Source of the DNA: Sphagnum compactum
Taxonomy: Eukaryota
DNA length: 64,000 nucleotides
Reading direction: 5' to 3'
Assembly (NCBI GenBank): GCA_965153455.1
Contig: OZ234493.1
Coordinates: 13,320,213 to 13,384,212 of the forward strand
In this document: piece by piece, positions 1 to 13,015 of the stretch
How the letters are laid out: each line of letters starts with the position of its first letter
How positions within the stretch are numbered: the stretch's first letter is position 1
Position numbers and translations under genes: made by a program
Notes under the pieces: generated by a model
The model's database searches: none
The model's input: only the letters and a program-made list of their open reading frames with translations
Told to the model about the DNA's origin: nothing

Positions 1-3000
1 AACCCAAAGGGCTTGTCTCACTGAGCAAAGTCCGCACATCCCTTCTCGTCCAGAGTAACCTTGACCTAGTGCTGGTGGCAGTCCACTTGGAATTCCATAC
101 AGTGGTAAAATGCTCTGAGCAAATTCCTGCACCAGGAATAATGCAAAGAGTGACATTGGTTGTCAAACTGCAGTTCAATTGATCTTGCGAAAACAATGAT
201 GCGAAAGTTGGTGCATAGGTATCACTGAGTGGAGACTCTGGTGTTGCCCTGCATATGCAGAAACAAGAAGCTCAAGAAGATGATGACGATGCTACTGTTA
301 AGAGAGTGTTATGGGGAATATGCTCACCTGATGGTTATAGACTTCTTTGGCTCTGTTGTCTTGCACATTTGGGCCCCATATACTGTATGGGGTGTCTGGG
401 AGGAAACTGGGAAACGAATTACTGAATGCGGCAAATGGCTTCAGTGGTGCTGGGAGTTGGTGGTCTGGAGTTTTAGGTTCGTGCTCAGGTGTGACAGGTG
501 ACCTGGCAGAAATCCTCACCTCTGTCCTCTGTGAACAAGAGCCTTGTGGAACCTGAATGCCAATCACTGCTGGTCTCTGGCTGGAGTTCTGCACAGAAGG
601 GTCGGATGTTGTTATCTTGGGCACATCCTCTGAGTCCTGTCCAATTTCGTTCTTGTGTAGCAGTGCTAGAAGCTCTGCCAAAAATGTCCATTCCTCCTGC
701 GAGAGACTTGCTGAGTTTATTCCAGAAGCATGAGGTGCATCTGGAAGTCTGGTCCCAACCTGAACTGTGGATGATTTGCATGCAATCAGACTGGCCAGGT
801 CTGCAGCTGATGAGCTTGATCCTGGACATTTGGGGGCATCATTCACCAATTCTGGGTGGCTTAACACCTGAGTTGCAACACCAGTAGTCAGAGTAGGCAG
901 CTTGTTTGATGGTAGAGATGTTGATGACGATGCAGCACCCATCAAGCTACTTGTTCCTCTGCATGCCACAGCTGCATAAGAGCGTGTCGCATCTACCAGG
1001 GACAGGCCCTTGTAACACTCAAGTCCAGCAGGATGCTGTTGTGCTGAAGGAGAGGCACTTTCACCTCGTTCAGCAACTTCATTGTTTACCACACCAGGTG
1101 GATCAGTGTGAGGCAGAGACGTGGGTGCATATGGTAAGGAAAACGAGTTTATGTGACTTGCACCCTGGCAGGCTACAGCAGCATAGGACCGTGAAGCATC
1201 CACTAATGATCGGCTTGTCATGAGAGATCCACTGGTCCTTCCTTGACTCTGTGATACAGGAGTGGGTCGAGTCAATGCTGGAAGGAGAACCATATGGGTT
1301 GCTGGGCCCCTTCCAACTGGTACAATCTTCATTCTGCAAACTTCAGGCAGAGAGCGGATGAAATCACTGAGCTTTTCATAACCAAGGGCCAAGTGGTCAA
1401 GTTCCAAACCACAGGTTGCTCTGAAATCTCCTTTCAGAGATGAGAGTGGATACCATTCTCCTTCGTTTAAGCGTGTTGACACTCCTGCCAGGAAGGTTGG
1501 GAGCCACTGCCTAAACTTGATCAACCAGGAAGGGGTAGATCCCTGGATGCTGCTGGATGAGCTTTGACTTACAGGTGATGAATACAAATCACTGGGATGG
1601 AAAAACTCCTTGGCTGATGACAATTTGTTGGAGAAACTGGTGTTGTCTTCTCCTGTAGGTTGCTGGCATTCCACCAATGTCATCCAGTGTGCTTGTGGAG
1701 TGCCTTGAAGTGTCTTGGGGTGAAGAAGTGATCCTGGAGTCGAGGGTGTTAGAAACTCCATTCTGTCCACTTCTGACATTTTGTCTGCAGGCAAAGGAGA
1801 ATACTGCTCCTGGACATTACTGTCAGATCTTGCAGAGTCGAGTGCTGGAAGTTCCGATCGAGGAACTGCACTTTTGATTTCCACCTGTCAGGGTAATGCA
1901 AATTTCAATTGGACGCAAGGAACTAACTCCAGGCTGGCCAATCACTGATGTACAATAGGCATGATCAGAGAGCATGTCAAAGAATGTGCTCCGCTTTTCT
2001 TAGTGTGCTGCTCACAACCATAAAAAATGGTCAAGGTCAATCATTTTGTACCTTTTTTCCGAAAATGTTGATGTAGTGAGCCTCAACTGCAGCTGCAACT
2101 GATTCTACATGCTTGAATGTGACAAATCCAAACCCACGTGATTGCAAATGGTCACCTGATTGACTTCCAATAACAACTGCATCTAGGACTGGACCATACT
2201 TCTCCTCAAAAAAGTCCCACAAGTCATCTGCAAACATAACAAACGGTTTCAATGAATTAATGGTGGAATTGCTTTCCTTGCTCACATCTCACTCATTGGG
2301 GATATGGCTTTTCTGACTGGACTAGTCTCTGTGCCCTGTAATATTTCACATTAATACACAACTCCAGTTTGACAATTATTCACCACAGGCATTGGAAGCA
2401 TCAATAGTTCAATCAAGTTCCAGGGCATTAGCCTTGAGAATTATTTAAGGATATAGCAGTTGCCACTTTTCAGGAAATTCTCTGGATTCTTCAGCAGTCA
2501 AAAAATATTTCTGATAGAGAAATAGAGGTCTGACATGAGAACTCATTTACACACTTTGCAGTGGAAATGGAACAAATGTCCCTAAACATCTGTGCTTGAA
2601 TCCTCCACTGGTAGAATGGGGCCACACTGTCAAAGCAAGTGTAGCACTGTAGCTAAACATTGTAAGGTCAAGAGAATTTGATAAGGCTTACCAGACTCCA
2701 CAGAAGGTGACAGACCTCCGACAAATATTTTCTTGCTTAGATCCTCTGTCACACGCTGTGGATCTCCCAGAAGTTGACAAGAACAGTGCAAAAAGCTGAG
2801 CATGATCTGCTGACTTCTTAACATGAAGGGGATCCCCCCACATGCATCTCAACATTTCATTTCTCAAGACTCAAGGCTGTGCATTTGCCAGTCATACCCT
2901 AATAAGTGTCTGGTACGTAGTTGCAGATCTGAGCATTGTGTTTATGTTGCCCAGAATGAAGATGCTATAAGCTTTGGCGCTACACACATTACTTATTGTG

Positions 3001-3859
3001 CATATGGAGATGGAGGAATAGTGCTTGGAAATTAGGTTTTACATTACCACGAACTGTATGCAAACTGTAAAACCTAATCTGCATTCGCAGCCTTCACTGC
3101 AAATATAGCTTCCTGGGACCTGCTAATGTTGTGAGAGTTCAGGCAATCGAGCTCTAACCTTGGTTCCTCCAAAATGTTTGGGTATAAGACCATGCCTTGT
3201 GTCTCCAGGTGGTAAAGCTCTGGCTCGCATAAGTGTTTCCTCACCATGGGCATAGAAACACTTCTCCCCGCGGACACATCCTCCGGGCATTGTAAAGTAA
3301 CGGCACATCTCTGTTTTCGCAGGTGCTTGCGGTTTTGAGCTGCAATGTACACATCATATCTCGGGCATTATAAATTGGGAGCAGAGGAGAGTTTCAGAAA
3401 CCACTAACAGATAACTTAGTCTAAAGATGTAGAAGGTAAAATCTCAATAGGACACAGCGATGATCTGCTTGCAAGCACTACTGCGAGCACGAGGTACATT
3501 ACGGACTGTACGAGCACACAACAACACGACCTCTCCTGCAGGATTCGATGGCTTCTCAAAGCTTTTGTCTAGAGCGGATTGATTGCCCCCCGTCCCCCCC
3601 CCGAGCAAAGTTCCGATGGCTTCAAAAATTATTCTCATCAAAGGCATTTGGCTTGGAGACAGAGTCCAGACCTCTCGTCAGTGTTTTCTTGGCCGGCTAT
3701 ATTGTCAGGCTCGGATGGAGGTGTTGCCGAGAAAGATTCAGTAGCTGTGCTCCTGGAGCACTCGCCGCCATTATTATTGCTATCGTCGTGAAAATACAGC
3801 CTCGATAATCGCTGAGCAAGGGAATTGGATTTTGGCAGGGCGTGAATATCCCTGGACAT
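1..3859 (-). CDS. CCCH zinc finger + RRM + OST-HTH/LOTUS RNA-binding protein with probable C-terminal RING finger (3' end outside window)
   Basis: Phase-consistent GT-AG exons: 3859-3672, 3339-3159, 2755-2692, 2227-2052, 1884-328, 126-<1 (764 codons in window). CCCH C-x8-C-x5-C-x3-H (CRYFTMPGGCVRGEKCFYAH). RRM with RNP2 IFVGGL and RNP1 RGFGFVTF is rebuilt across three exons and ends GKKVEIKSAVP. LOTUS-like segment YPLSSLKGDFRATCGLELDHLALGYEKLSDFIRSLP (~1280-1527). Last visible exon ends MCGLCSVRQALWV. Confidence 0.88.
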
Positions 3860-5316
3860 GACCAGCTCCTTCAGCTCCCCTGTCAAACCGCAACACACTA
3901 GCACAAAACAGTTACAAAAATCTGTTTTTTTCGTGAACAATACGTCACCTATGCACGTCTGGATAATCAGCGTAGACGGTCTAACTTGCAGGAAACAATA
4001 TTGATCTGATGGAGTTGCAGATAGACGATCTACCTGATAACGATCCGTCTTCAGTTTGAAGGCACGTCTCCTTCTCTAGTTTCCTGCAGACAGAACTGCA
4101 ACGGCTGTTAGTTCTTCAACAGCAGTGGCGATAAGGTCTGAATGCGGAGATAAAGTCATCATACAAACTGATGAAGTTTACGCAGTTCATTACTCGAACT
4201 ATCTAAAGATCGTGCTAGAACTTAGAACTGCGCCGAGTACTGAAAGAGCGTCAAATTTCTCTCGATCAGAGCTTCTGGACAATTGTTCACCGTCTTGCAT
4301 AGTTAAGATTCGCATTCCGCGCAAACGTTTTTTCACAACAAGGAGCCCCGGGAGACTCGAATTACCTGATGTCATCAGCTGTTACTTGGCGGCTTGATCC
4401 ATATTGGAGAAGAAAGCGCACGCAATCGATAGATGCAGCTTCGTTCACCTTGTCAGCTTCTCATGTTCAAGCACAAAAAGAAATTAACACATTTCTTCAC
4501 TACAATATTATCTCTGTATTAGTCACCAGAAAATCAAGTACTTACTGGTTAAATGAGCTCTTGAAAGCATTCTTTGTTCAGGACACACCGATACTCGCCA
4601 TTCTTTCAATATTGTGAGACAATTACCTCCATATACGTCAGACAATGCAGTGCTTATATCATAGACCAGTTGAAACATCTCTGTTCTAGCCAGAACCGCT
4701 TTATATATGTTTCACTACTAGAGGCAAAGGTGAAAAATGCAAGTAGGAACCTCCAAGTGAGCTTTCCAAGCCATGCTCATGGCCAAGAGTCGAAGAAAAA
4801 CCGTCCAAGCTGACCTGCTACATTGAAGGAAGATCGTCATTATTCATGAGCTAGAACGTAAGTCGTAAAGAAAAATTGCGATATTGTCTCTATCACACGG
4901 AAGCAAAGATTCTCTGAAATTAACTGCAAGATGCTCAATATCGAAGACACAGAGAAGATGAATTGACGCCGCAAGTCTCTAGAGATCGATTGATCCTCAG
5001 CCGTATCAGAATCACATACAATATGCGACGTGCAATTTGACCAACGAATTACTCTTACATATTTCCAAGCACCGCCAAAAGCGATACAGGACATGACGGC
5101 GGGCAAAGAAAATGAAGAGTTCAGTGATATAATGCAAGAAATTAAGCTTCCAGAATTGAATTAAACCATAGAATCAAACACAGATCATCTGGCACGACGC
5201 GCATTAAGTCTTACATTTTGTCATCTTGCAATCGCCAAAAACAGGATTTTCTCCGAACGATCGCTACAAGACAAAAAGGGGGTAAACTAAGAAAAATTGG
5301 AGAGATATGGAATCAC

Positions 5317-5513
5317 CTGCGCCGGCTTCTCAGCATTCCCTGAATTTGATTCCGACATTGTTTGGATCGAGAAAATTCGGTGAGGAGCTGGTTTTTGCGA
5401 TAGGGAGCTCCGCCGGTCTGAAGACGAGAGGAGAAGAGACGACGCGATGACGACGACGGCGACGACGGCGGAGAAAGAGGATCGAGATGAGGAGGAGAAT
5501 TTTCAGGTCCCAT
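5317..5513 (-). other. Probable first (5' UTR) exon of the CCCH-RRM-LOTUS gene
   Basis: CpG- and TC-rich leader-like sequence ending in donor CAG|GTGATT at 5316. Further candidate UTR splice sites lie near 3880, 3948 and 4084. Confidence 0.45.
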
Positions 5514-5524
5514 TCGAGATCTCT

Positions 5525-5662
5525 ATACACGTCTTCATCCCACGTGTGATGCCAGCTATGACAAACCACATCCTAAACCAGGTAGTATAGCATCTCGATC
5601 TGCTAGGGTTTCCCCGTACAATTGCTCACATGGGACCCACCCTGCCCAACCACGTGTCGGCA
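5525..5662 (-). promoter_or_regulatory. Putative promoter with G-box/ABRE motifs, a DRE/CRT core and a telo-box
   Basis: ACACGTC (~5527), CACGTG (5541), CCACGTGTC overlapping GTCGGC (= GCCGAC on minus strand; 5650-5661), TAGGGTTT (~5604), all directly upstream of the putative first exon. Confidence 0.45.
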
Positions 5663-8600
5663 TTGTCATTGACACCAACACCATTCATGCTTAGGTTTTC
5701 ATCCACCATCTACCCAAGTTGGTGAATGGCAATGTTTTTTGGGGTTTCATCCAATTTTGTTCCACTTTTTTCTTAACAATGTTTTTGTTTGGATGTTGGT
5801 TTTGAGAATGGAGCAAAAACATGTTCTCATCAACAATTTTCATAACATTCATCATGGCTAAAATTGGCATATTAGGTATGTTTCGATCAATAGTAATTTG
5901 AAGCTCAATGCTAATTGTTGTCATTCATGGTCTTTTCTTCAACATATTTTTAACTTCAATATGTAAATGACAACTCATAGCTTGAAGAAAAATCAAGTAC
6001 ATTTAATATAACAACTTTAATTTAGGTTCAATGTTATTATTCGTTATTAGTGATAATGAAATTTGAAAAAAAAAAGTTGATTTTGTGAAAATTAAGTTCT
6101 ATTTAAATGCAATATTGAATAACATTGCATGCAACATAAATTGAATTGAATTGAATTGAATTGAATTTAAGATTCAAATGGATCCAAATTCTATTGAAGA
6201 AAAATGAGATGTAAATTAATGCATTACATATGTAAAATATGGTGGTTTAGGTATATATGGTGGTATATTTTATTATGTAAATGTACGTTATGTAAATTAA
6301 TGCATTGCATATATGAATGATGGGAAGGAAAAGTATAACACCATCATTGAAATTTGGGAATATGTGATATGTGATAGTGCAAATCATTACAACATAATTG
6401 GGAATGTTACCCAATTATATGAGCTTTTATTGTTCATAGGTTGCATGCCTTTGAACACAAGTGTGATTACATGTTCTTTTATATCATTTTGTTGCCTTTT
6501 TAAATAAGATTATTTTTTCTCTCGATTTATCCAGAGTCTATGATTTCAAGTTTCGTATATTAGTGCACCCTAATTTTGAAAAGACACATTTGGACTTAAT
6601 TAATGTCAAAAAATACATTGTTTGATTTTCATTTTTAAAAAAACGTCCTTGACTTTTTTAAAGATTGTAACAAAAAAAAAAACGGTTTTGAAACAGAAAT
6701 AATTGAGGTAGTTGTTAAGAAGCTATGATTCCCTATCTCTTGTTTCCCCCCCTCCCCCCCCCGCCCCCCCAAACCCCCTTCTTCTTCTACATACCTATTT
6801 CAATAGAAAAGGACTGGGAAAGTATTCATGGCAGTTTCTAGGTGGATGAGTTGGAGTAACAAGGTTTCAATAAGAGAGCAAGTCAGAGGAAAAAATGTGT
6901 AAAGTAGAGTCCCATTCTTTGATATTCTTCTTTTTGTTTCAAAGTTGATTTATAGTCCAATTTTCTGCCTTTTTTTCCATTAGAAACTCAAGTTGTTTAT
7001 AAATCCATCATCCTATTCTTCACAAAAAAAAATTCCAAGCAAAAAGGTGCTAGACCCCTCAAAGCCACTCTTTAGTACTTTAAAAGGTGGATGAAATGTT
7101 ACATAATTGCCCTCCATAATGTTTTATCACATTGTGGAAAGGTTGTGTGCTGGGCAAAACATAGCATTGGAGAGGTTGTGTGCTGAGCAAAACACCGCAT
7201 TAAAGAGCTTGAGCTTAAGATTCCATTCTCATCATCGATGTGGAAGTCAGTGTGCTTACCATGGTCATAACAATAGTGTTCTCTTGCAGTAGACTGTGTT
7301 ACAAACTATGAACTTTTGCAAAACAAGTTTCATTATCAGAATTCCATACATGAATGCTATACATGTTTGCTTATACCACTCATAATCTACTTTATTTGCA
7401 ATTCAACTTTTGCAATTTTGGAAGATTTAGGAGTATTAAAGGATGGGCCGATATTAAAATTATGTCTTATGGATAAGGCAAAGTGTGGGAGGAGGTGAGG
7501 GCTAGGTCTATCATAGTCAACTGTTGTGCCTTCGTATCTTTTGTGATTGTCATCTCAAAGGGTAGTTTGTGGTTAGTAGTAATAGCCATTGCAAAGTGCC
7601 TCCTTGCCTATGAAAAAAATTCTTCAGTTGTAGATCTTAATTTCCCTCCTTGTTTGTAATGAGCGTGGTGGCCAAAGAAAAGTTTCTTGCACATAATTGT
7701 TAGTGTTGTGGTATTGGGCTATTTCAAAATTGAGGGAAATGTTTCATTATCATTTGCCATTCATAAAGATTGTGAATATTATATCATTATCTTATAACCC
7801 TCAATCACTTTGTTTCATTTGCATCATGACTTTTGTGATTTTGGTTTAGGATGCAACTAAGAATTTCCTTCACGCACTTTCCATATGTCTAGCAGGGAAA
7901 GGCCAATTTTTGTTTCACTCAAACACTATGTTTTCTCACTTTGAAATACTAGTTCAAAGCTGATGTTACAAGATAGATGCATTTCTTGCTTCCAATTGGT
8001 AGTTGTGAATGAATATCAATGTTCAAAAGTGGATTCATCTGTGAACTAAATCATGCACCATGATCATCTCATAATCACTTGTGTACGCATATTTTATAGT
8101 ATGGTAGATCTCTAACACTTGAGGTTTGAAGATATTTAATAACTTTGGAGCAAAGCTCTCAAAGGAGATGACAAACATTGACTGGCCGAACAATTGGCAA
8201 TCTCATAATGAATCTGAAGATCCCATTTGACCCATCATCTTTATGATGATCCTTGTGATTAGATGGTCATGATTCAACATTACAATATAAGTTCAATGGA
8301 GTTTCCTACACTATAGTTTGAAATGTCTTTCACAACCTCCCTTAAGGGATCATGGCTAGCTTTGAATGCACATCACAAGGTTGAAGAAAGAATAACAGAT
8401 TTATTTTTTATTCCACTGACAATGGTTTTGGATTAGTAGCTGCAGCTCAGCAGTAGGAAAATGATTGCTACTTGCCTTGAATGATTGAGCTTGAAACATG
8501 ATGATGGAGAGTTAGAGCATGTGGAAATAGGTGAAGATTTGAATGAAAGGTGGGGAAAAAATGTTTTCCAGTCTCTCTGTCAACCCATATCCTATCTACA

Positions 8601-9013
8601 ATTCCTTAAAGGATTCTAAAGCAAGCTTCTCCAATGGTGCAAAGGGGAGCCTTCACTGGTATTGGAGCCTATGTTGTCTTATGAATGAATGTTTTTGCAT
8701 CACTTGGTTGATTGTTTCATATATGTGTGTGTGTATGTTTCTTTTTTTCTTTCTTTTGCTTTCTTTGTAATAGTTATATTCCCTCCTAGTTTTGTACCTT
8801 GCTTGAATTTGCTAAACAATGTAGGATTTTATGTCTATTGATTGCTTTGGTTTTTTATGCCCTTTACGAGTTGCATGAAGATTTGCATATTGATGCATGA
8901 AGCAGTGGGTGAAAGAGACCAATGGCATGTTGTCATTGAAAGATGTGAAAATTCGATTATGTATGTATTCGCATTATGCCTCTTGAATGCCTATTGACAT
9001 CATGGTTGAGATT

Positions 9014-9218
9014 TCCTATTGTTGAAAAAAATGTGATAGACACTTGTGATGCAAATTTGTTGTAATTGTTTTCCCTAAGGTTTGAACAAATGGTCATATG
9101 CTTATCTACACCCATGATCAAAGGCTAATGAAATCAGTGGGGAGTAATGGCATCAAGTAATTATCCTGCATGATAAATGTGATGGTCTTACATGTTGTGA
9201 ATGACATTCACAAGGTTA
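9014..9218 (+). repeat. Ancient ~200-bp dispersed repeat, copy 1
   Basis: Collinear blocks AAAATGTGATAG, TTATCTACACC, ATGAAATCAGTGG, GTGATGGTCT and CACAAGGTTA are shared with the reverse complement of 24661-24884 and, more loosely, 25050-25271. Confidence 0.65.
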
Positions 9219-10993
9219 ATACTGCTCATTTTTCAAATATTTGTTTTGGGTTCCCTAATTTTTTGTGACCTTGCATTTTTTTCTAGATTTGTTTTTGCAA
9301 TTACATTGATATGTACATTTCTGATTTGATATACCTGAGCAATTCATATGAAATTATGGGGTTTATTAGTTGCCAAAAGCTTTTGTGGGCCTCTCTATTT
9401 TTGATTGAAGACTTCACACACCAAGAGAATCATGTAGGAGAATCACACACAAAGGTTCTTTTAACATTTGCAGATCACCTAATCTTGCTTGCATATTATC
9501 TTCAAATCCTCCATGTTAGTGAGTGATGTGTTGGTGGGTTGTTATGGAAAGGCTCACCATGTCCACAACTTTTGATAGTGTGGATATATCAGGTTTGTCT
9601 CCAATGTTATTGTTTTAAGTACCTTACACATTGCAAATGTATAATTTCCATGTACTTGAACACCCTCTTAGTGGGACAAGAAATTGTCAATATCTAGAGC
9701 CATCTTAGACTTTTTTTTTTCATGGTATAGATTGAATTGATGTAGTTTTGGGAAGATACCGTTTCCTAACCCCCAAAGGAATTGTGTGCAATTGAATTTT
9801 GTTTCTTATCCTTGGATGTAGGAACTATATTCTTTGCCAACTATAGGTGGGAAACAAAAGATTGCAAGTTTTTCTACCCTCACATCTTGTTCTCTATGCA
9901 TGAGAAAATTGCTTGAGAATCCAAATGACCGAGAGTCTTTATTTTCTTCTAGGGTTTGAATCAAGTTGCTCCGATAAGATTCTTGAAATAAAAAGATGTC
10001 ATTGATTCTGCTATTATAGTAGTATTTTCCAGTCTTTTCTTTTATTGAGTTGTCAATCAACTATGGGGATATTTGAGTCCATGTGTTATTACTTATTGAG
10101 ACTTTCATCGCATTTTGTTTGTATGATCCAGTGTCTTTTTTGTTTTGGTCTGTTTTGTATTTTTCTGCAGAATTTAATGACCTACGCTGTGATGCTTGGG
10201 AATCACACTATGGGTTTTTGGCATTGGAGCTATGACACTTAAACATGCAGTTGGTGTTATTCTTGTCTTCTGCTTCACCTAAAAAACGACTTCATAGTAA
10301 TTTTGGTGTATGTTATGGGGATAACATGAAATTGTAACTAAATTAGGGTCCAACCCATTTAAAGAAATGAAGATTTCTTTATCCCTCATTTATGAATTTT
10401 GATTGTCTTGTAAAATTTCTTTGTCATTTTCTTTTTTTACATTATAATTTTTTTTTTAATGATTAATCTTTGTGAGTTTCTAGCTCTTGTGCTTACCAAC
10501 ATCTTTTTATGACTTCTGGGTGCAATTGTTGCATTTGCCTATTTCATTGCAAGAATTTCACAAACCACCAACTATATATTCTGTTGTAGTTTCACAACAA
10601 CAACCTTCACATTTTTTCTAGGATAGGGTGTTTAGAGGTACAAGCCCCCTCCTTCAATTATCAATTGATGAAGTCATTACTAGGTGAACAATATGCCAAA
10701 GTAAGTGAATACGTCTATGTAAAGGACACAAATTCCAGCTCAATGTGTTGGTTCAGTGGTAAAAAATATTGTTTGTTTATTAAGAACACTTGCATGCTAA
10801 TTTGTTGAAATATTTTTTCTTTTGCTTGATTGAGGAGTTCTATAATTGGTATTTTTTGTTTTGAATTTTGTTTGCAAGTCTCTAGATGGTGCATGATATT
10901 AAAGATAAAAAAATGTTGAATTTTCACGAGATTATCCAAAGTTGGGTTAGAAATGAAGATAAAAATGTGAATATTGAATCCATAAGAAACCAT

Positions 10994-11179
10994 TGGACAA
11001 TAAGTTGTCCAATTTGCATGGATGAAATTAAATTAAAAACTTCAACAAATTGTGGTCACATTTTTTGTCAGGAAGTTATTTATGGCATGATTAATACATA
11101 AAACAAATGTCTTATTTGTTGAAAGAAACTTAGTTTAAAGGATGTACATCATGTGTACATTCAATTTACTCTTGAATAA
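10994..11179 (+). pseudogene. RING-HC E3 ligase pseudogene fragment (RNF4/STUbL-like C-terminal RING)
   Basis: WTISCPICMDEIKLKTSTNCGHIFCQEVIYGMINT*NKCLIC*KKLSLKDVHHVYI. C3HC4 spacing with two in-frame stops and one Cys ligand lost. Confidence 0.8.
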
Positions 11180-11793
11180 CTTATTTATTTTATATCTTCA
11201 ACACAAAATTTGTCTACTGAGGAAGTGGTGGCACTAAACCTGAAAGCACTCAATAATATAATTTTTGTTCATCCTTATGTTCTTGAAGAGGTACATTTTT
11301 TCACTTAGAACCTACTCGGTTCCAATATTTATTTTCTAAATAATTTCAAAATACTATTCCTGGTAGACAAAATTGTATCATTTTTTTGAATTGTGAATGT
11401 GTATGGGTTGGGTACTAGTTGTTGGAGATGAAAAGATGGTTTTACATAGTCTTCAAGGAGCCCTTTCCATCCAAGGGCAAAAGTTGGCATCTTTTTCCAA
11501 ACAGCAATGTGAGGTCAAAGATCTTAGAGCCTGGGTTTTAAGTAGAATTTTAAGTAGTATTTACCAAATTTTCTTTATTTTTATCATAAACTAAGCTTTT
11601 CATTCTTGAAAATGATCATGCAAATATTTATCATATTTTGTGCTAGATCAACAATTGACTCATCAGAAGGAAATGGGACGATATGGTTTTGACATTTTAA
11701 GCCAACAGTTGACATAAAAGTTTTTGTATTGACCATCTTCATCCTGGAGAAAAATCAAATGATGTGATGACACTTGTTTCCAATGTGTGGTAG

Positions 11794-13015
11794 ATTGTGT
11801 ACTTGATTTATGCTTTAGGAGATGGACAACTCTTCTATTTCATGTTGAATCTCAGCACTGGAGAGTTATCAAGTTATAAATATATATGTGGGGATTCAAC
11901 CTATTGCACTTTGTACTTTCCGGTCAAAGAATACCATACATGTCTTTGTAGCCTCTAATTGACCCACAATGATCTACAACAACAAGCAAAAACTTCTATA
12001 TTGAAATGTGAACCACATGTGCCCTTTCAATTCTGCATCATTTCTAGATAGGTTGATTTTTCTACATTGATCTTTACATCCCTTTGTCAATTGCATTTTA
12101 TTCTTTGTTGTATCAAATGGTAAAGTATGTTCATCCTTTTTTTAGAATGGATCCTTTTTTCTAGTCAAAGTAGGTGTGATCTTAAAACTAAAGTTATAAG
12201 TGACAATTTGTGTGTGGTGTTCAACTTTGCAATTGGTAAGGAAGGAGAGCTCACAATTAGCACAATTGATAACATTTATAAGCTACATATTTGTACAATC
12301 CTTCTCGATGGGCATTCACATCGGATCAACCACCAAAAACATTTTCCCACATTTGTAATTTACTTTGCCAAATATTTGCCTTTAGGCTCAAATGGTGAAG
12401 ATATGGAAACCCACTATATCCATTTAATTGATGATCAGACATTTGAAATCATTTCATCATTTGCGTTGGATGCCGATGAAATTGTGTGTTCCATTATAAC
12501 ATGCTCACTCATGGATAAACCCTAAACCCTAAACCCAATTCATACTATTGTGTGAGGATTGCATATGCCCTGCCAGAGGAAAGTGAGCCCAATAAGGTTT
12601 GTTTTATATCTTGCATCACTTCTCTTTTGTTATTAATATTGTTGTTAATGTGTCTCTTCATTTGCACATTTGGTTTGTATGTCTAGTATTACCTTATTAG
12701 ATATTTCCAAGTCAGGTTCTTTTGATTGTGTTTACAACAACATGTCTTGTGTAATGAAGTTTTTATCTACAATTATTTAATTCATTCCTAGTTGAACTTC
12801 AGCACTAAAAATATTTGATGCAAGTCAATGAATAAAGAGCTAAATTTGTGCAAGGATGAATACTTGTGTTCATTGTTGAAAATGGCAAATTACAACTGGT
12901 GACAAATAAAGAGGTCAAGGGAGCTATGTATAATTTCAATGTATGCAATGGAAAGCTACTAGCAAGGATAAATAAAAAGATACATTTGTACAAGTGGACA
13001 CTCCGGAAAGATGGT
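11794..13015 (+). pseudogene. DDB1: DDB1 (UV-damaged DNA-binding protein 1) internal fragment, pseudogene with introns
   Basis: Exon relics 11794-12051, 12225-12596, 12854-13015 give ALGDGQL, QPIALCTFRSKNTIHVFVASN*P, HMCPFNSASF, AIGKEGELTISTIDNIYKLHI, LIDDQTFEIIS, YYCVRIAYALPEESEPNK, G*ILVFIVENGKLQL and NGKLLARINKKIHLYKWTLRKDG, collinear with plant DDB1. Stops, frameshifts and mutated acceptors are present. Confidence 0.93.
12516..12536 (+). repeat. Interstitial plant telomeric repeat (TAAACCC)3
   Basis: TAAACCCTAAACCCTAAACCC sits inside the DDB1 pseudo-exon. Confidence 0.85.

Follow-up and report, generated by a model that had tools for sequence, protein, structure and literature searches.

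A probable MEL2-like gene of a peat moss, with a last exon hidden from the open reading frame track and a C-terminal C3HC4 RING

Rice MEL2 and maize PAM1, with the order ANK-RRM-LOTUS-RING, are studied regulators of meiosis, and the accessible part of a 2021 preprint gives ANK-ZINC-RRM-LOTUS-RING as the consensus of the MEL2L family (bioRxiv 10.1101/2021.03.24.433842). According to the same part of this preprint: (i) MEL2 forms granules, and these granules still appear in rice protoplasts when the RING is missing; (ii) RING-less forms of the family exist in Chara, Amborella and Malus; (iii) bryophyte MEL2-likes are expressed in the sporophyte only; (iv) a Physcomitrella member resembles MEL2 without ANK, i.e., Pp3c3_9890V3, which may be the Physcomitrium protein P0008 considered below. 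In the accessible text on PAM1, the LOTUS domain binds CCR4-NOT and the ankyrin repeats dock on the chromosome-axis protein ASY1 (PMC13187813). A literature search on moss MEL2-like genes returned no further paper. The initial annotation of the present locus did not know of its architecture as characterised in plants; because this architecture had already been described, that interpretation is only partly right.

The window, i.e., the whole stretch of DNA analysed (64,000 nucleotides), contains a minus-strand gene extending from position 4034 to position 1, with six coding exons and introns that are all GT..AG. The reading is open over the six exons for 764 codons without stop, up to the window edge. 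The window encodes 764 residues of the predicted protein, the full length of which would be about 805. The features are localized as follows.

4034..4118, minus strand: 3' portion of an untranslated leader exon (spliced 4034|3879; intron 4033-3880, GT..AG).
3672..3879, minus strand: coding exon 1 (joint 3672|3339; weak tblastn match to residues 13-35 of P0009).
3159..3339, minus strand: coding exon 2, with the zinc finger at 3305-3246 (PF18044 and PF18345; tblastn matches to P0008, P0009 and P0013; RNA joints).
2692..2755, minus strand: coding exon 3 of 64 nt, with RNP2 of the RRM (KIFVGGL; tblastn, canonical splice sites).
2052..2227, minus strand: coding exon 4, remainder of the RRM (Pfam RRM_1; joint 2052|1884 in runs X1 and X2).
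328..1884, minus strand: coding exon 5, 519 codons, LOTUS (about 1533-1270) and then the spacer (Pfam OST-HTH; RNA contigs).
127..327, minus strand: intron 5, 201 nt, GT..AG (joint in X1 and X2; the apparent stop 300-298 lies inside).
1..126, minus strand: initial 42 codons of the last exon, where the RING begins at 36-34 (CGLC...).

Four splice joints were seen in RNA contigs; among them, 3672|3339 occurs in X1 (1 contig, depth 9.84). In exon 1, which ends in phase 2, the start ATG lies at 3859-3857 and the encoded N-terminus is of low complexity. Exon 3 is 91% identical to P0009 and P0013 (tblastn). In both X1 and X2, RNA contigs have loose ends at 3882, and these match window positions 4066-4037. 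A walk along the frame of the leader, whose contiguity up to 4118 is an assumption, gives an in-frame TGA at 4118-4116 and no in-frame ATG before 3859. In the upstream region, from 4000 to 12000, no long ORF of note was found. The public models of two close relatives (P0002 and P0007) are truncated or chimeric. The internal introns of the 406-residue model P0002 were also considered and rejected, exon 5 being covered by RNA contigs without internal joints. A checked full-length model is now given for one Sphagnum MEL2-like gene.

The hidden last exon put forward by the initial annotation is real, as confirmed by RNA. The long minus-strand ORF (1884-298) contains the donor CAG|GTGAGC at 327, which had been proposed to splice in phase to an exon at 126-1 missed by the ORF track. 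On the donor side the exon ends at 328, with GT at 327-326; on the other side, 127 is the last letter of the acceptor ...GGTGCAG|, after which an exon in phase 0 reads EFAQ...GREGMCGLCSVRQALWV from 126 up to position 1. The 328|126 joint is present in RNA-derived contigs of both covering runs (2/2), with 201 nt skipped and CT..AC on the plus strand: one contig in X1 (depth 8.62, short side of 125 letters) and one contig in X2 (depth 12.3, short side of 78 letters), both runs being unstaged field moss metatranscriptomes. The intron bin 131-260 has a depth of 0 in X1 as in X2, and the joint is absent from the DNA-like run X18, all 30 bins of which are covered. Transcripts reading through 327 to the stop at 298, the outcome set against this splicing by the initial annotation, were not found among the RNA contigs. 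For run X22 (polyadenylated raw reads with the same species label), 0 matching reads were obtained from about 12% of the run only.

The window itself holds the first two cysteines of the RING only, and the other six ligands are seen in relatives about 97.7% identical. The terminal exon runs 41 codons plus a stop past position 1 in each of the six metagenome loci that hold it (6/6), five of which span the gene (about 97.7% identity to the window gene). The extension reads AVPCGH...CFLCYGYVERWIALH* in the six loci and completes all eight C3HC4 ligands, according to the pattern C-x2-C-x11-C-x-H-x3-C-x2-C-x13-C-x2-C. The later ligands are present also in protein P0002. The terminal exon of locus L004 matches PF13920 (zf-C3HC4_3) with an E-value of 6.6e-10 and 39.1 bits vs. 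a cut-off of 27. When 12 and 20 proteins of the family are aligned, each of the eight ligand columns is either invariant or conserved to at least 90%, and mosses and flowering plants alike retain the full set of ligands. Some members have a degraded RING, i.e., Asp in place of the His ligand in Marchantia P0027 and CxxxC in P0023.

In the structural model, the RING block has a pLDDT of 77-89, and the best fold matches are XIAP, cIAP2, RNF123, MEX-3C, IDOL, MUL1 and BIRC7 (rmsd 1.6-2.0 over 53-58 columns, probability 1.00, Foldseek). For the RING of XIAP, 56 columns match with an rmsd of 1.6 (probability 1.00, E 0.003); the Foldseek E-values for RING and LOTUS, at 0.003 and weaker, are short of the 0.001 mark and are taken as fold resemblance only. 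Compared with PDB sequences, the RING gives E-values of 0.0018 for cIAP1, 0.004 for XIAP and 0.018 for MEX3C. The eight ligands in 6/6 related loci, the PF13920 match and the fold matches support the terminal RING, a C3HC4 of IAP/MEX3 type, that had been anticipated from its first cysteines.

The three other domains announced by the initial annotation (CCCH, RRM and LOTUS) were all found with Pfam. The CCCH finger, C-x8-C-x5-C-x3-H at 3305-3246 and upstream of the RRM, matches PF18044 with 25.9 bits vs. a cut-off of 24.6. The E-values are 6.1e-10 for RRM_1 and 1.5e-10 for OST-HTH/LOTUS. The AlphaFold model of LOTUS has a pLDDT of 86.9 and its best fold match is the LOTUS of TDRD7 (TMt 0.80); in sequence, LOTUS shares 65% identity with its counterpart in an Oryza ANK-RRM-LOTUS protein. 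The spacer that follows LOTUS has 312 residues, is rich in Ser, Ala and Pro, and contains a duplicated motif, LVDA[ST]RSYAAVAC, at 1206-1168 and 999-961. No Pfam match to ankyrin repeats was found in exon 1 or exon 2. The order CCCH-RRM-LOTUS-disordered spacer-RING holds.

The gene can be taken as an unremarkable moss copy within the already known family of rice MEL2 and maize PAM1, and the locus is probably a peat-moss (Sphagnum-like) MEL2-like member in the ankyrin-less bryophyte form, i.e., ZINC-RRM-LOTUS-spacer-RING. The absence of ankyrin repeats does not exclude membership, since the 2021 preprint accepts ankyrin-less bryophyte members. In a family tree of 31 rows, among which rice MEL2 and maize PAM1 by name and AtC3H18 do not figure, the window protein groups with proteins of Sphagnum jensenii, Physcomitrium and Ceratodon (SH-aLRT 96). 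This moss group lies inside a bryophyte clade (97) that is sister to the angiosperm ANK-bearing clade (97), and the Oryza row is on a long branch. The dN/dS ratio is 0.24 over 764 codons and 0.19 over 762 codons for two relatives, which indicates a working gene under purifying selection. It must be added that the report of sporophyte-only expression counts against this reading, because transcripts of the window gene occur in unstaged field moss metatranscriptomes. On the same side weigh the granules formed by MEL2 lacking its RING, the family members with a lost or degraded RING, the view of the six later ligands in relatives only, the weak Foldseek E-values and the skipping of exon 3 described below.

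Judging from relatives that have been studied, mRNA would be bound by the CCCH finger and the RRM, the LOTUS domain would recruit CCR4-NOT, and the long disordered spacer and the RING would help to build cytoplasmic RNA granules; the protein would act post-transcriptionally, with sporophyte development or meiosis as the probable setting. We lean slightly towards a RING that would also work as a ubiquitin ligase, structurally of the IAP/MEX3C kind; the protein would then link the binding of RNA to the ubiquitination of its partners in granules or in CCR4-NOT. It is less likely, and rather doubtful, that in this same family member the RING is not a ligase but a zinc-stabilised module of self-association or docking aiding the assembly of RNA granules. 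For such a module speak the granular localization of the MEL2 RING alone in 16/51 rice protoplasts and the more diffuse MEL2 signal upon RING deletion, both from the accessible part of the preprint (bioRxiv 10.1101/2021.03.24.433842). A literature search including the PAM1 and MEL2 papers returned no ubiquitin ligase (E3) assay for the MEL2-like family in the accessible texts: the words "ubiquitin" and "ligase" are absent from that of the PAM1 paper (PMC13187813) and "ubiquitin" is absent from that of the MEL2 preprint. Ligand substitutions are also tolerated in some paralogues, and the residue after the last cysteine varies in the family (Y, N, T, A or D). Many active RINGs have Arg or Lys at this place. 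However, XIAP is an active E3 with Tyr after the last cysteine; moreover, the conservation of the eight ligands from mosses to flowering plants and the nearest solved folds, which are all active E3 RINGs, argue against a RING that is not a ligase. A homodimer prediction for the RING (P0002 residues 340-406, two copies, four zinc ions) gave a score of 0.00 and is uninformative either way. Improbable, more so than the docking module, is a functional likeness to AtC3H18, Brassica BcMF30 and lily LlC3H18, i.e., a general stress-granule factor and not a regulator of meiosis or of the sporophyte. The CCCH-RRM-LOTUS order is in common, the AtC3H18-type proteins enter stress- and P-body-like granules and form mRNA-dependent cytoplasmic foci via LOTUS and RRM (accessible parts of PMC9335048, PMC7693475 and PMC10514960), and the occurrence of the moss transcripts in field metatranscriptomes fits as well. 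However, no RING is described for these proteins ("ring" occurs 0 times in the accessible text of the AtC3H18 and lily papers), no C3H18-named protein is present among 54 matches, nor among the 120 matches listed in a second search, and the nearest named relatives carry a MEL2-type RING. The finger, as described in the accessible texts, is C-x7-C in AtC3H18 and LlC3H18 vs. C-x8-C in the window protein. Membership of the AtC3H18 group was set aside on the spacing of the finger and the RING, compared by description.

Both RNA runs skip the 64-nt RRM exon 3, so that the frame is shifted. The skipping joint 2227|3159 has canonical ends (depth 5.15 in X1 and 17.4 in X2) and leads to a stop at codon 138; no joint including exon 3 was found among the contigs of X1 and X2. 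Since the assembled transcripts of both runs skip exon 3, no full-length mRNA was seen directly. A mainly unproductive splicing in the sampled tissues would leave the full-length protein to particular cells (sporophyte or premeiotic), the outcome being either a peptide of 137 residues with CCCH as its only domain or an mRNA that goes to decay. This is unlikely, even though the skipping joint is present in both runs and the inclusion joint in neither, with an early stop as the outcome, and even though bryophyte MEL2-likes are reported as sporophyte-specific in the accessible part of the preprint (bioRxiv 10.1101/2021.03.24.433842). Against it, two runs only are concerned, exon 3 is 91% conserved with distant homologues and included in the public gene models of relatives, and purifying selection extends over the whole coding sequence; the missing inclusion form proves nothing, because contigs drop rarer variants. 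Equally unlikely is a regulated form of the same idea, in which vegetative peat moss would skip exon 3 and the full-length RNA-binding RING protein would arise only in cells that include the exon, such as sporophyte or premeiotic ones. If true, splicing would be a switch acting upstream of a meiosis regulator that is conserved in land plants; if exon 3 skipping is upheld in staged material, it would hint at how the expression of this regulator is restricted.

The MEL2-like member with a terminal RING, the reading preferred here, can be compared with known systems. MEX3C, Roquin and the IAP-type RINGs share with it the Pfam family of their C-terminal C3HC4 RING, the animal RNA-binding RING ligases have RNA-binding modules upstream of it, and the nearest solved RING folds include XIAP, cIAP1/2, BIRC7 and MEX-3C. 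These upstream modules are unrelated (KH or ROQ vs. CCCH, RRM and LOTUS); no sign of common descent with the plant family extends beyond the RING, and ligase activity is putative for the plant family. AtC3H18, AtC3H18L, BcMF30a,c and LlC3H18 (non-tandem CCCH) are alike in domain order and in mRNP granule localization and, in the accessible descriptions, unlike in RING and finger spacing, as discussed above. The Arabidopsis protein P0108 (ANK-LOTUS-RING), equated with At3g28880 by locus-tag name and architecture and not by accession, shares LOTUS and the family-specific RING (C-x2-C...LW...PC-x-H...) and falls in the angiosperm sister clade of the tree; the Brassicaceae members differ by the presence of ankyrin repeats and the absence of CCCH finger and RRM.

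Rice MEL2 (LOC_Os12g38460) and maize PAM1, as far as the accessible texts describe them, have the same RRM-LOTUS core, long spacer and C-terminal PF13920 C3HC4 RING (one or two), and both belong to RNA granules or take part in RNA processing. They have N-terminal ankyrin repeats and no CCCH finger, whereas the moss protein has CCCH and no ankyrin, and their roles in meiosis are demonstrated by mutants, whereas that of the moss gene is a prediction. Mosses and flowering plants both conserve the RING of the family, and the moss form, compact and free of ankyrin repeats, would be convenient for the family-wide question of ligase activity. Of the bryophyte MEL2-likes, P0008 of Physcomitrium patens (855 aa) may serve as an example. 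The spacer is shorter in Sphagnum and carries the duplicated LVDAxRSYAAVAC motif, but both proteins have CCCH, RRM, LOTUS, a long disordered spacer, a C-terminal PF13920 RING and, after it, the tail ...VERWIALH, with 37% identity over 97% of exon 5 and a common moss clade in the tree.

The MEL2-like gene on the minus strand runs off the window at position 1. Within its long ORF (1884-298), the donor CAG|GTGAGC sets an exon end at 328. The intron 327-127 (201 nt, 3' end ...GGTGCAG) is followed by an exon which begins at 126 in phase 0, is open to position 1 and reads EFAQ...GREGMCGLCSVRQALWV. The exon model was built from tblastn of homologues onto the window and from splice joints in RNA contigs.

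Coding exons of the gene within the window
3879-3672, minus strand: coding exon 1, with the ATG at 3859
3339-3159, minus strand: coding exon 2, CCCH finger
2755-2692, minus strand: coding exon 3 (64 nt), RNP2 of the RRM
2227-2052, minus strand: coding exon 4, remainder of the RRM
1884-328, minus strand: coding exon 5, LOTUS domain and spacer
126-1, minus strand: coding exon 6, start of the RING

Every intron is GT..AG, and the joined CDS within the window (2292 nt, i.e., 764 codons) is free of stops. It is preceded by a non-coding leader exon with its 3' end at 4034 (minus strand). If this exon is contiguous to 4118, the spliced leader has an in-frame TGA at 4118 upstream of the start, with no intervening in-frame ATG. 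Four upstream ATG triplets (4300, 4190, 4162 and 4159) are found in the putative leader 4300-4034. Two database models look wrong. The model of the near-identical homologue P0002 (406 aa) is at odds with the gene at window 2824-2692 and in exon 5: its start ATG lies within intron 2, it omits the CCCH exons, and it splices out two segments of exon 5 through which RNA contigs run unbroken. The Sphagnum balticum protein P0007 (616 aa) appears as a fusion with a cation-efflux protein (PF01545/PF16916).

The stretch is partly covered in 21 of the 22 sequencing runs returned by the run search, and 14 are recorded as RNA. Joints were examined in the contigs of X1 (RNA by guess), X2 (a metatranscriptome) and X18. 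X1 and X2 each carry the joint 328|126 in 1 contig (depth 8.62 and 12.3, respectively) and have zero depth in the intron bin 131-260; the transcripts of these two runs are thus spliced and do not read through 327. The terminal exon which the initial annotation had proposed as hidden behind the long ORF is confirmed by the donor, the phase-0 acceptor and the RNA joints. The joint is absent from X18, which behaves like DNA (all 30 bins continuously covered). In X22, about 12% of which was sampled, 0 reads were placed on the stretch. The joints 1884|2052 (X1 and X2) and 3339|3672 (X1) are consistent with the exon model, and exon 5 is covered by RNA contigs without internal joints.

A canonical joint 2227|3159, which omits exon 3 (2692-2755), occurs in X1 (depth 5.15) and X2 (depth 17.4), and no joint including exon 3 was found among the contigs of these runs. 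Skipping shifts the frame and leads to a stop at codon 138. Since contigs lose rarer splice variants, this joint demonstrates a skipped form without speaking against a full-length one. Exon 3 skipping is a lead peculiar to this locus.

The 42 residues of the last exon lying in the window match no Pfam family on their own. The continuation was found in relatives. The metagenome contig scan gave 6 loci, 5 of which align along the entire gene (97.3-98.0% identity). In all five, the terminal exon runs uninterrupted for 41 more codons, AVPCGHYGLCAACKDSLRQR[S/N]HAPTQCFLCYGYVERWIALH, and then stops. The sixth locus has an identical RING-exon ending. P0002 shares this ending as well as the junction, with ...VYNHQ followed by EFAQ... 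in its sequence. The RING predicted past the edge is therefore borne out, in relatives and not in the window's own DNA. The terminal-exon product matches PF13920 (zf-C3HC4_3; E 6.6e-10, 39.1 bits vs. a cut-off of 27), with the ligand pattern C-x2-C-x11-C-x-H-x3-C-x2-C-x13-C-x2-C. Of the eight ligand columns, alignments of 12 and of 20 proteins show six without any variation and two conserved at >=90%. The deviating proteins are P0027 from Marchantia, where Asp takes the place of His, and P0023, which has CxxxC; Asp also replaces the His ligand in P0026. From their sequences, these altered ligands suggest that the RING is degenerate in some paralogues.

The 83-residue terminal-exon product was modelled with a 21-row alignment. 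Its RING part reaches a block pLDDT of 77-89, and residues 1-23 stay below 50. The top Foldseek match in the PDB is the XIAP RING (rmsd 1.6 over 56 columns, TMt 0.67-0.69), along with cIAP2, RNF123, MEX-3C, IDOL, MUL1, BIRC7 and cIAP1. All these matches have a probability of 1.00 and E values of at least 0.003, i.e., short of the 0.001 mark. With E values up to 1, the PDB sequence search gave 17 matches, led by cIAP1 (0.0018), cIAP2 (0.003), XIAP (about 0.004), RNF4 (0.0058) and MEX3C (0.018). Eleven residues follow the final cysteine pair in all six metagenome loci, and the tail ...VERWIALH is almost identical in Sphagnum, Physcomitrium, Ceratodon and Calypogeia. In dimeric RINGs, e.g., those of IAPs, C-terminal tails matter.

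The three other modules claimed initially were all matched by Pfam: the CCCH finger (PF18044, 25.9 bits vs. a cut-off of 24.6; spacing C-x8-C-x5-C-x3-H), the RRM (E 6.1e-10) and OST-HTH/LOTUS (E 1.5e-10). The LOTUS model (106 residues, pLDDT 86.9) is closest to the LOTUS of TDRD7 (TMt 0.80), then to Tejas, TDRD5 and Oskar. It covers window 1533-1270 and stops at the beta hairpin; the helix afterwards is missing in the model, so that the domain would be of the minimal rather than the extended kind. The spacer from LOTUS to the last exon has 312 residues (S 15.7%, A 10.6%, P 9.6%). LVDA[S/T]RSYAAVAC occurs twice in it (window 1206-1168 and 999-961); other bryophyte homologues have one similar copy directly after LOTUS, e.g., VDGSRSYADVAC. 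A second conserved short stretch, EPKTP...PF..F...F.GFLP...WG, lies ahead of the RING (window ~480-370). It is common to mosses and liverworts; angiosperms have a different one, ...FFLREFDFY... (alignment A1 of family proteins).

A search with exon 5 scored 8000 candidates, of which 54 reached E <= 0.001. The top matches are Sphagnum-like (96-99% identity), followed by Physcomitrium patens (P0008, 855 aa), Sphagnum jensenii, Ceratodon and Calypogeia. Ten of the 54 have PF13920 in the precomputed Pfam lists, and many others are short-contig fragments. A second search, started from an angiosperm member, yielded 189 proteins at E <= 1e-10, with PF13920 in 21 of the best 120. Among these 120, ankyrin repeats are likewise present in most named angiosperm proteins. 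Scanning for a simple ligand pattern reveals RING-like strings in additional matches, beyond those flagged in the Pfam lists.

A quick maximum-likelihood tree, with a Closterium protein as its root, was computed from 31 rows hand-picked from both searches, fragments and most Brassicaceae duplicates being excluded. The window protein falls inside the moss clade (SH-aLRT 96), which is nested in bryophytes (97), themselves sister to the angiosperm clade (97). Members of the latter include an Arabidopsis ANK-LOTUS-RING protein and, on a long branch, an Oryza ANK-RRM-LOTUS protein. The gene is under purifying selection. Comparison with two related loci gave dN/dS values of 0.24 and 0.19. Each locus shows 34 differences from the window across the 2292 exonic positions; one aligns there without gaps and the other with a single 3-nt gap. 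Intron differences number 31 and 43 over 1567 positions, with a further 58 and 62 positions in gaps.

The architecture and its conservation are direct observations. By analogy with the studied members rice MEL2 and maize PAM1, CCCH and RRM would bind mRNA, LOTUS would recruit CCR4-NOT, and the spacer and RING may help to form granules. We slightly favour the reading that the RING is an active ligase, because its ligands are conserved and the nearest solved folds are all active E3 RINGs. The same two points weigh against a RING serving for assembly only, without ligase activity, which appears rather unlikely. Three points count against ligase activity: no ligase assay of MEL2 is reported in the literature searched (the 2011 MEL2 paper lies outside its coverage), loss of the RING is tolerated in some lineages, and MEL2 without RING still makes granules. 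The designation 'E3-ubiquitin ligase domain' for the MEL2 RING is by annotation only in the accessible text of PMC10838886.

The architecture, of which the initial annotation knew no characterised example in plants, is in fact that of a known family, and this locus is a further member. In the available portions of the preprint (bioRxiv 10.1101/2021.03.24.433842), rice MEL2 is ANK-RRM-LOTUS-RING with a large disordered region and is located in cytoplasmic RNA granules. The same portions give a MEL2-like consensus, ANK-ZINC-RRM-LOTUS-RING, in land plants and Chara, some bryophyte members without ANK or RING, one Physcomitrella protein like MEL2 minus ANK, and sporophyte-only expression of 5 Marchantia genes and 1 Physcomitrella gene. 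The literature search found the MEL2-like name for plants in no other paper. Maize PAM1, as far as the accessible text goes (PMC13187813), has ANK, RRM, LOTUS and two PF13920 RINGs; it binds ASY1 through its ankyrin domain and CCR4-NOT in a LOTUS-dependent manner, and it also binds RNA. AtC3H18, BcMF30a/c and LlC3H18 are CCCH-RRM-LOTUS proteins of mRNP granules (PMC9335048, PMC7693475, PMC10514960); a RING is undescribed for them in the available parts of these papers, whereas the nearest named relatives of the peat-moss gene have one.
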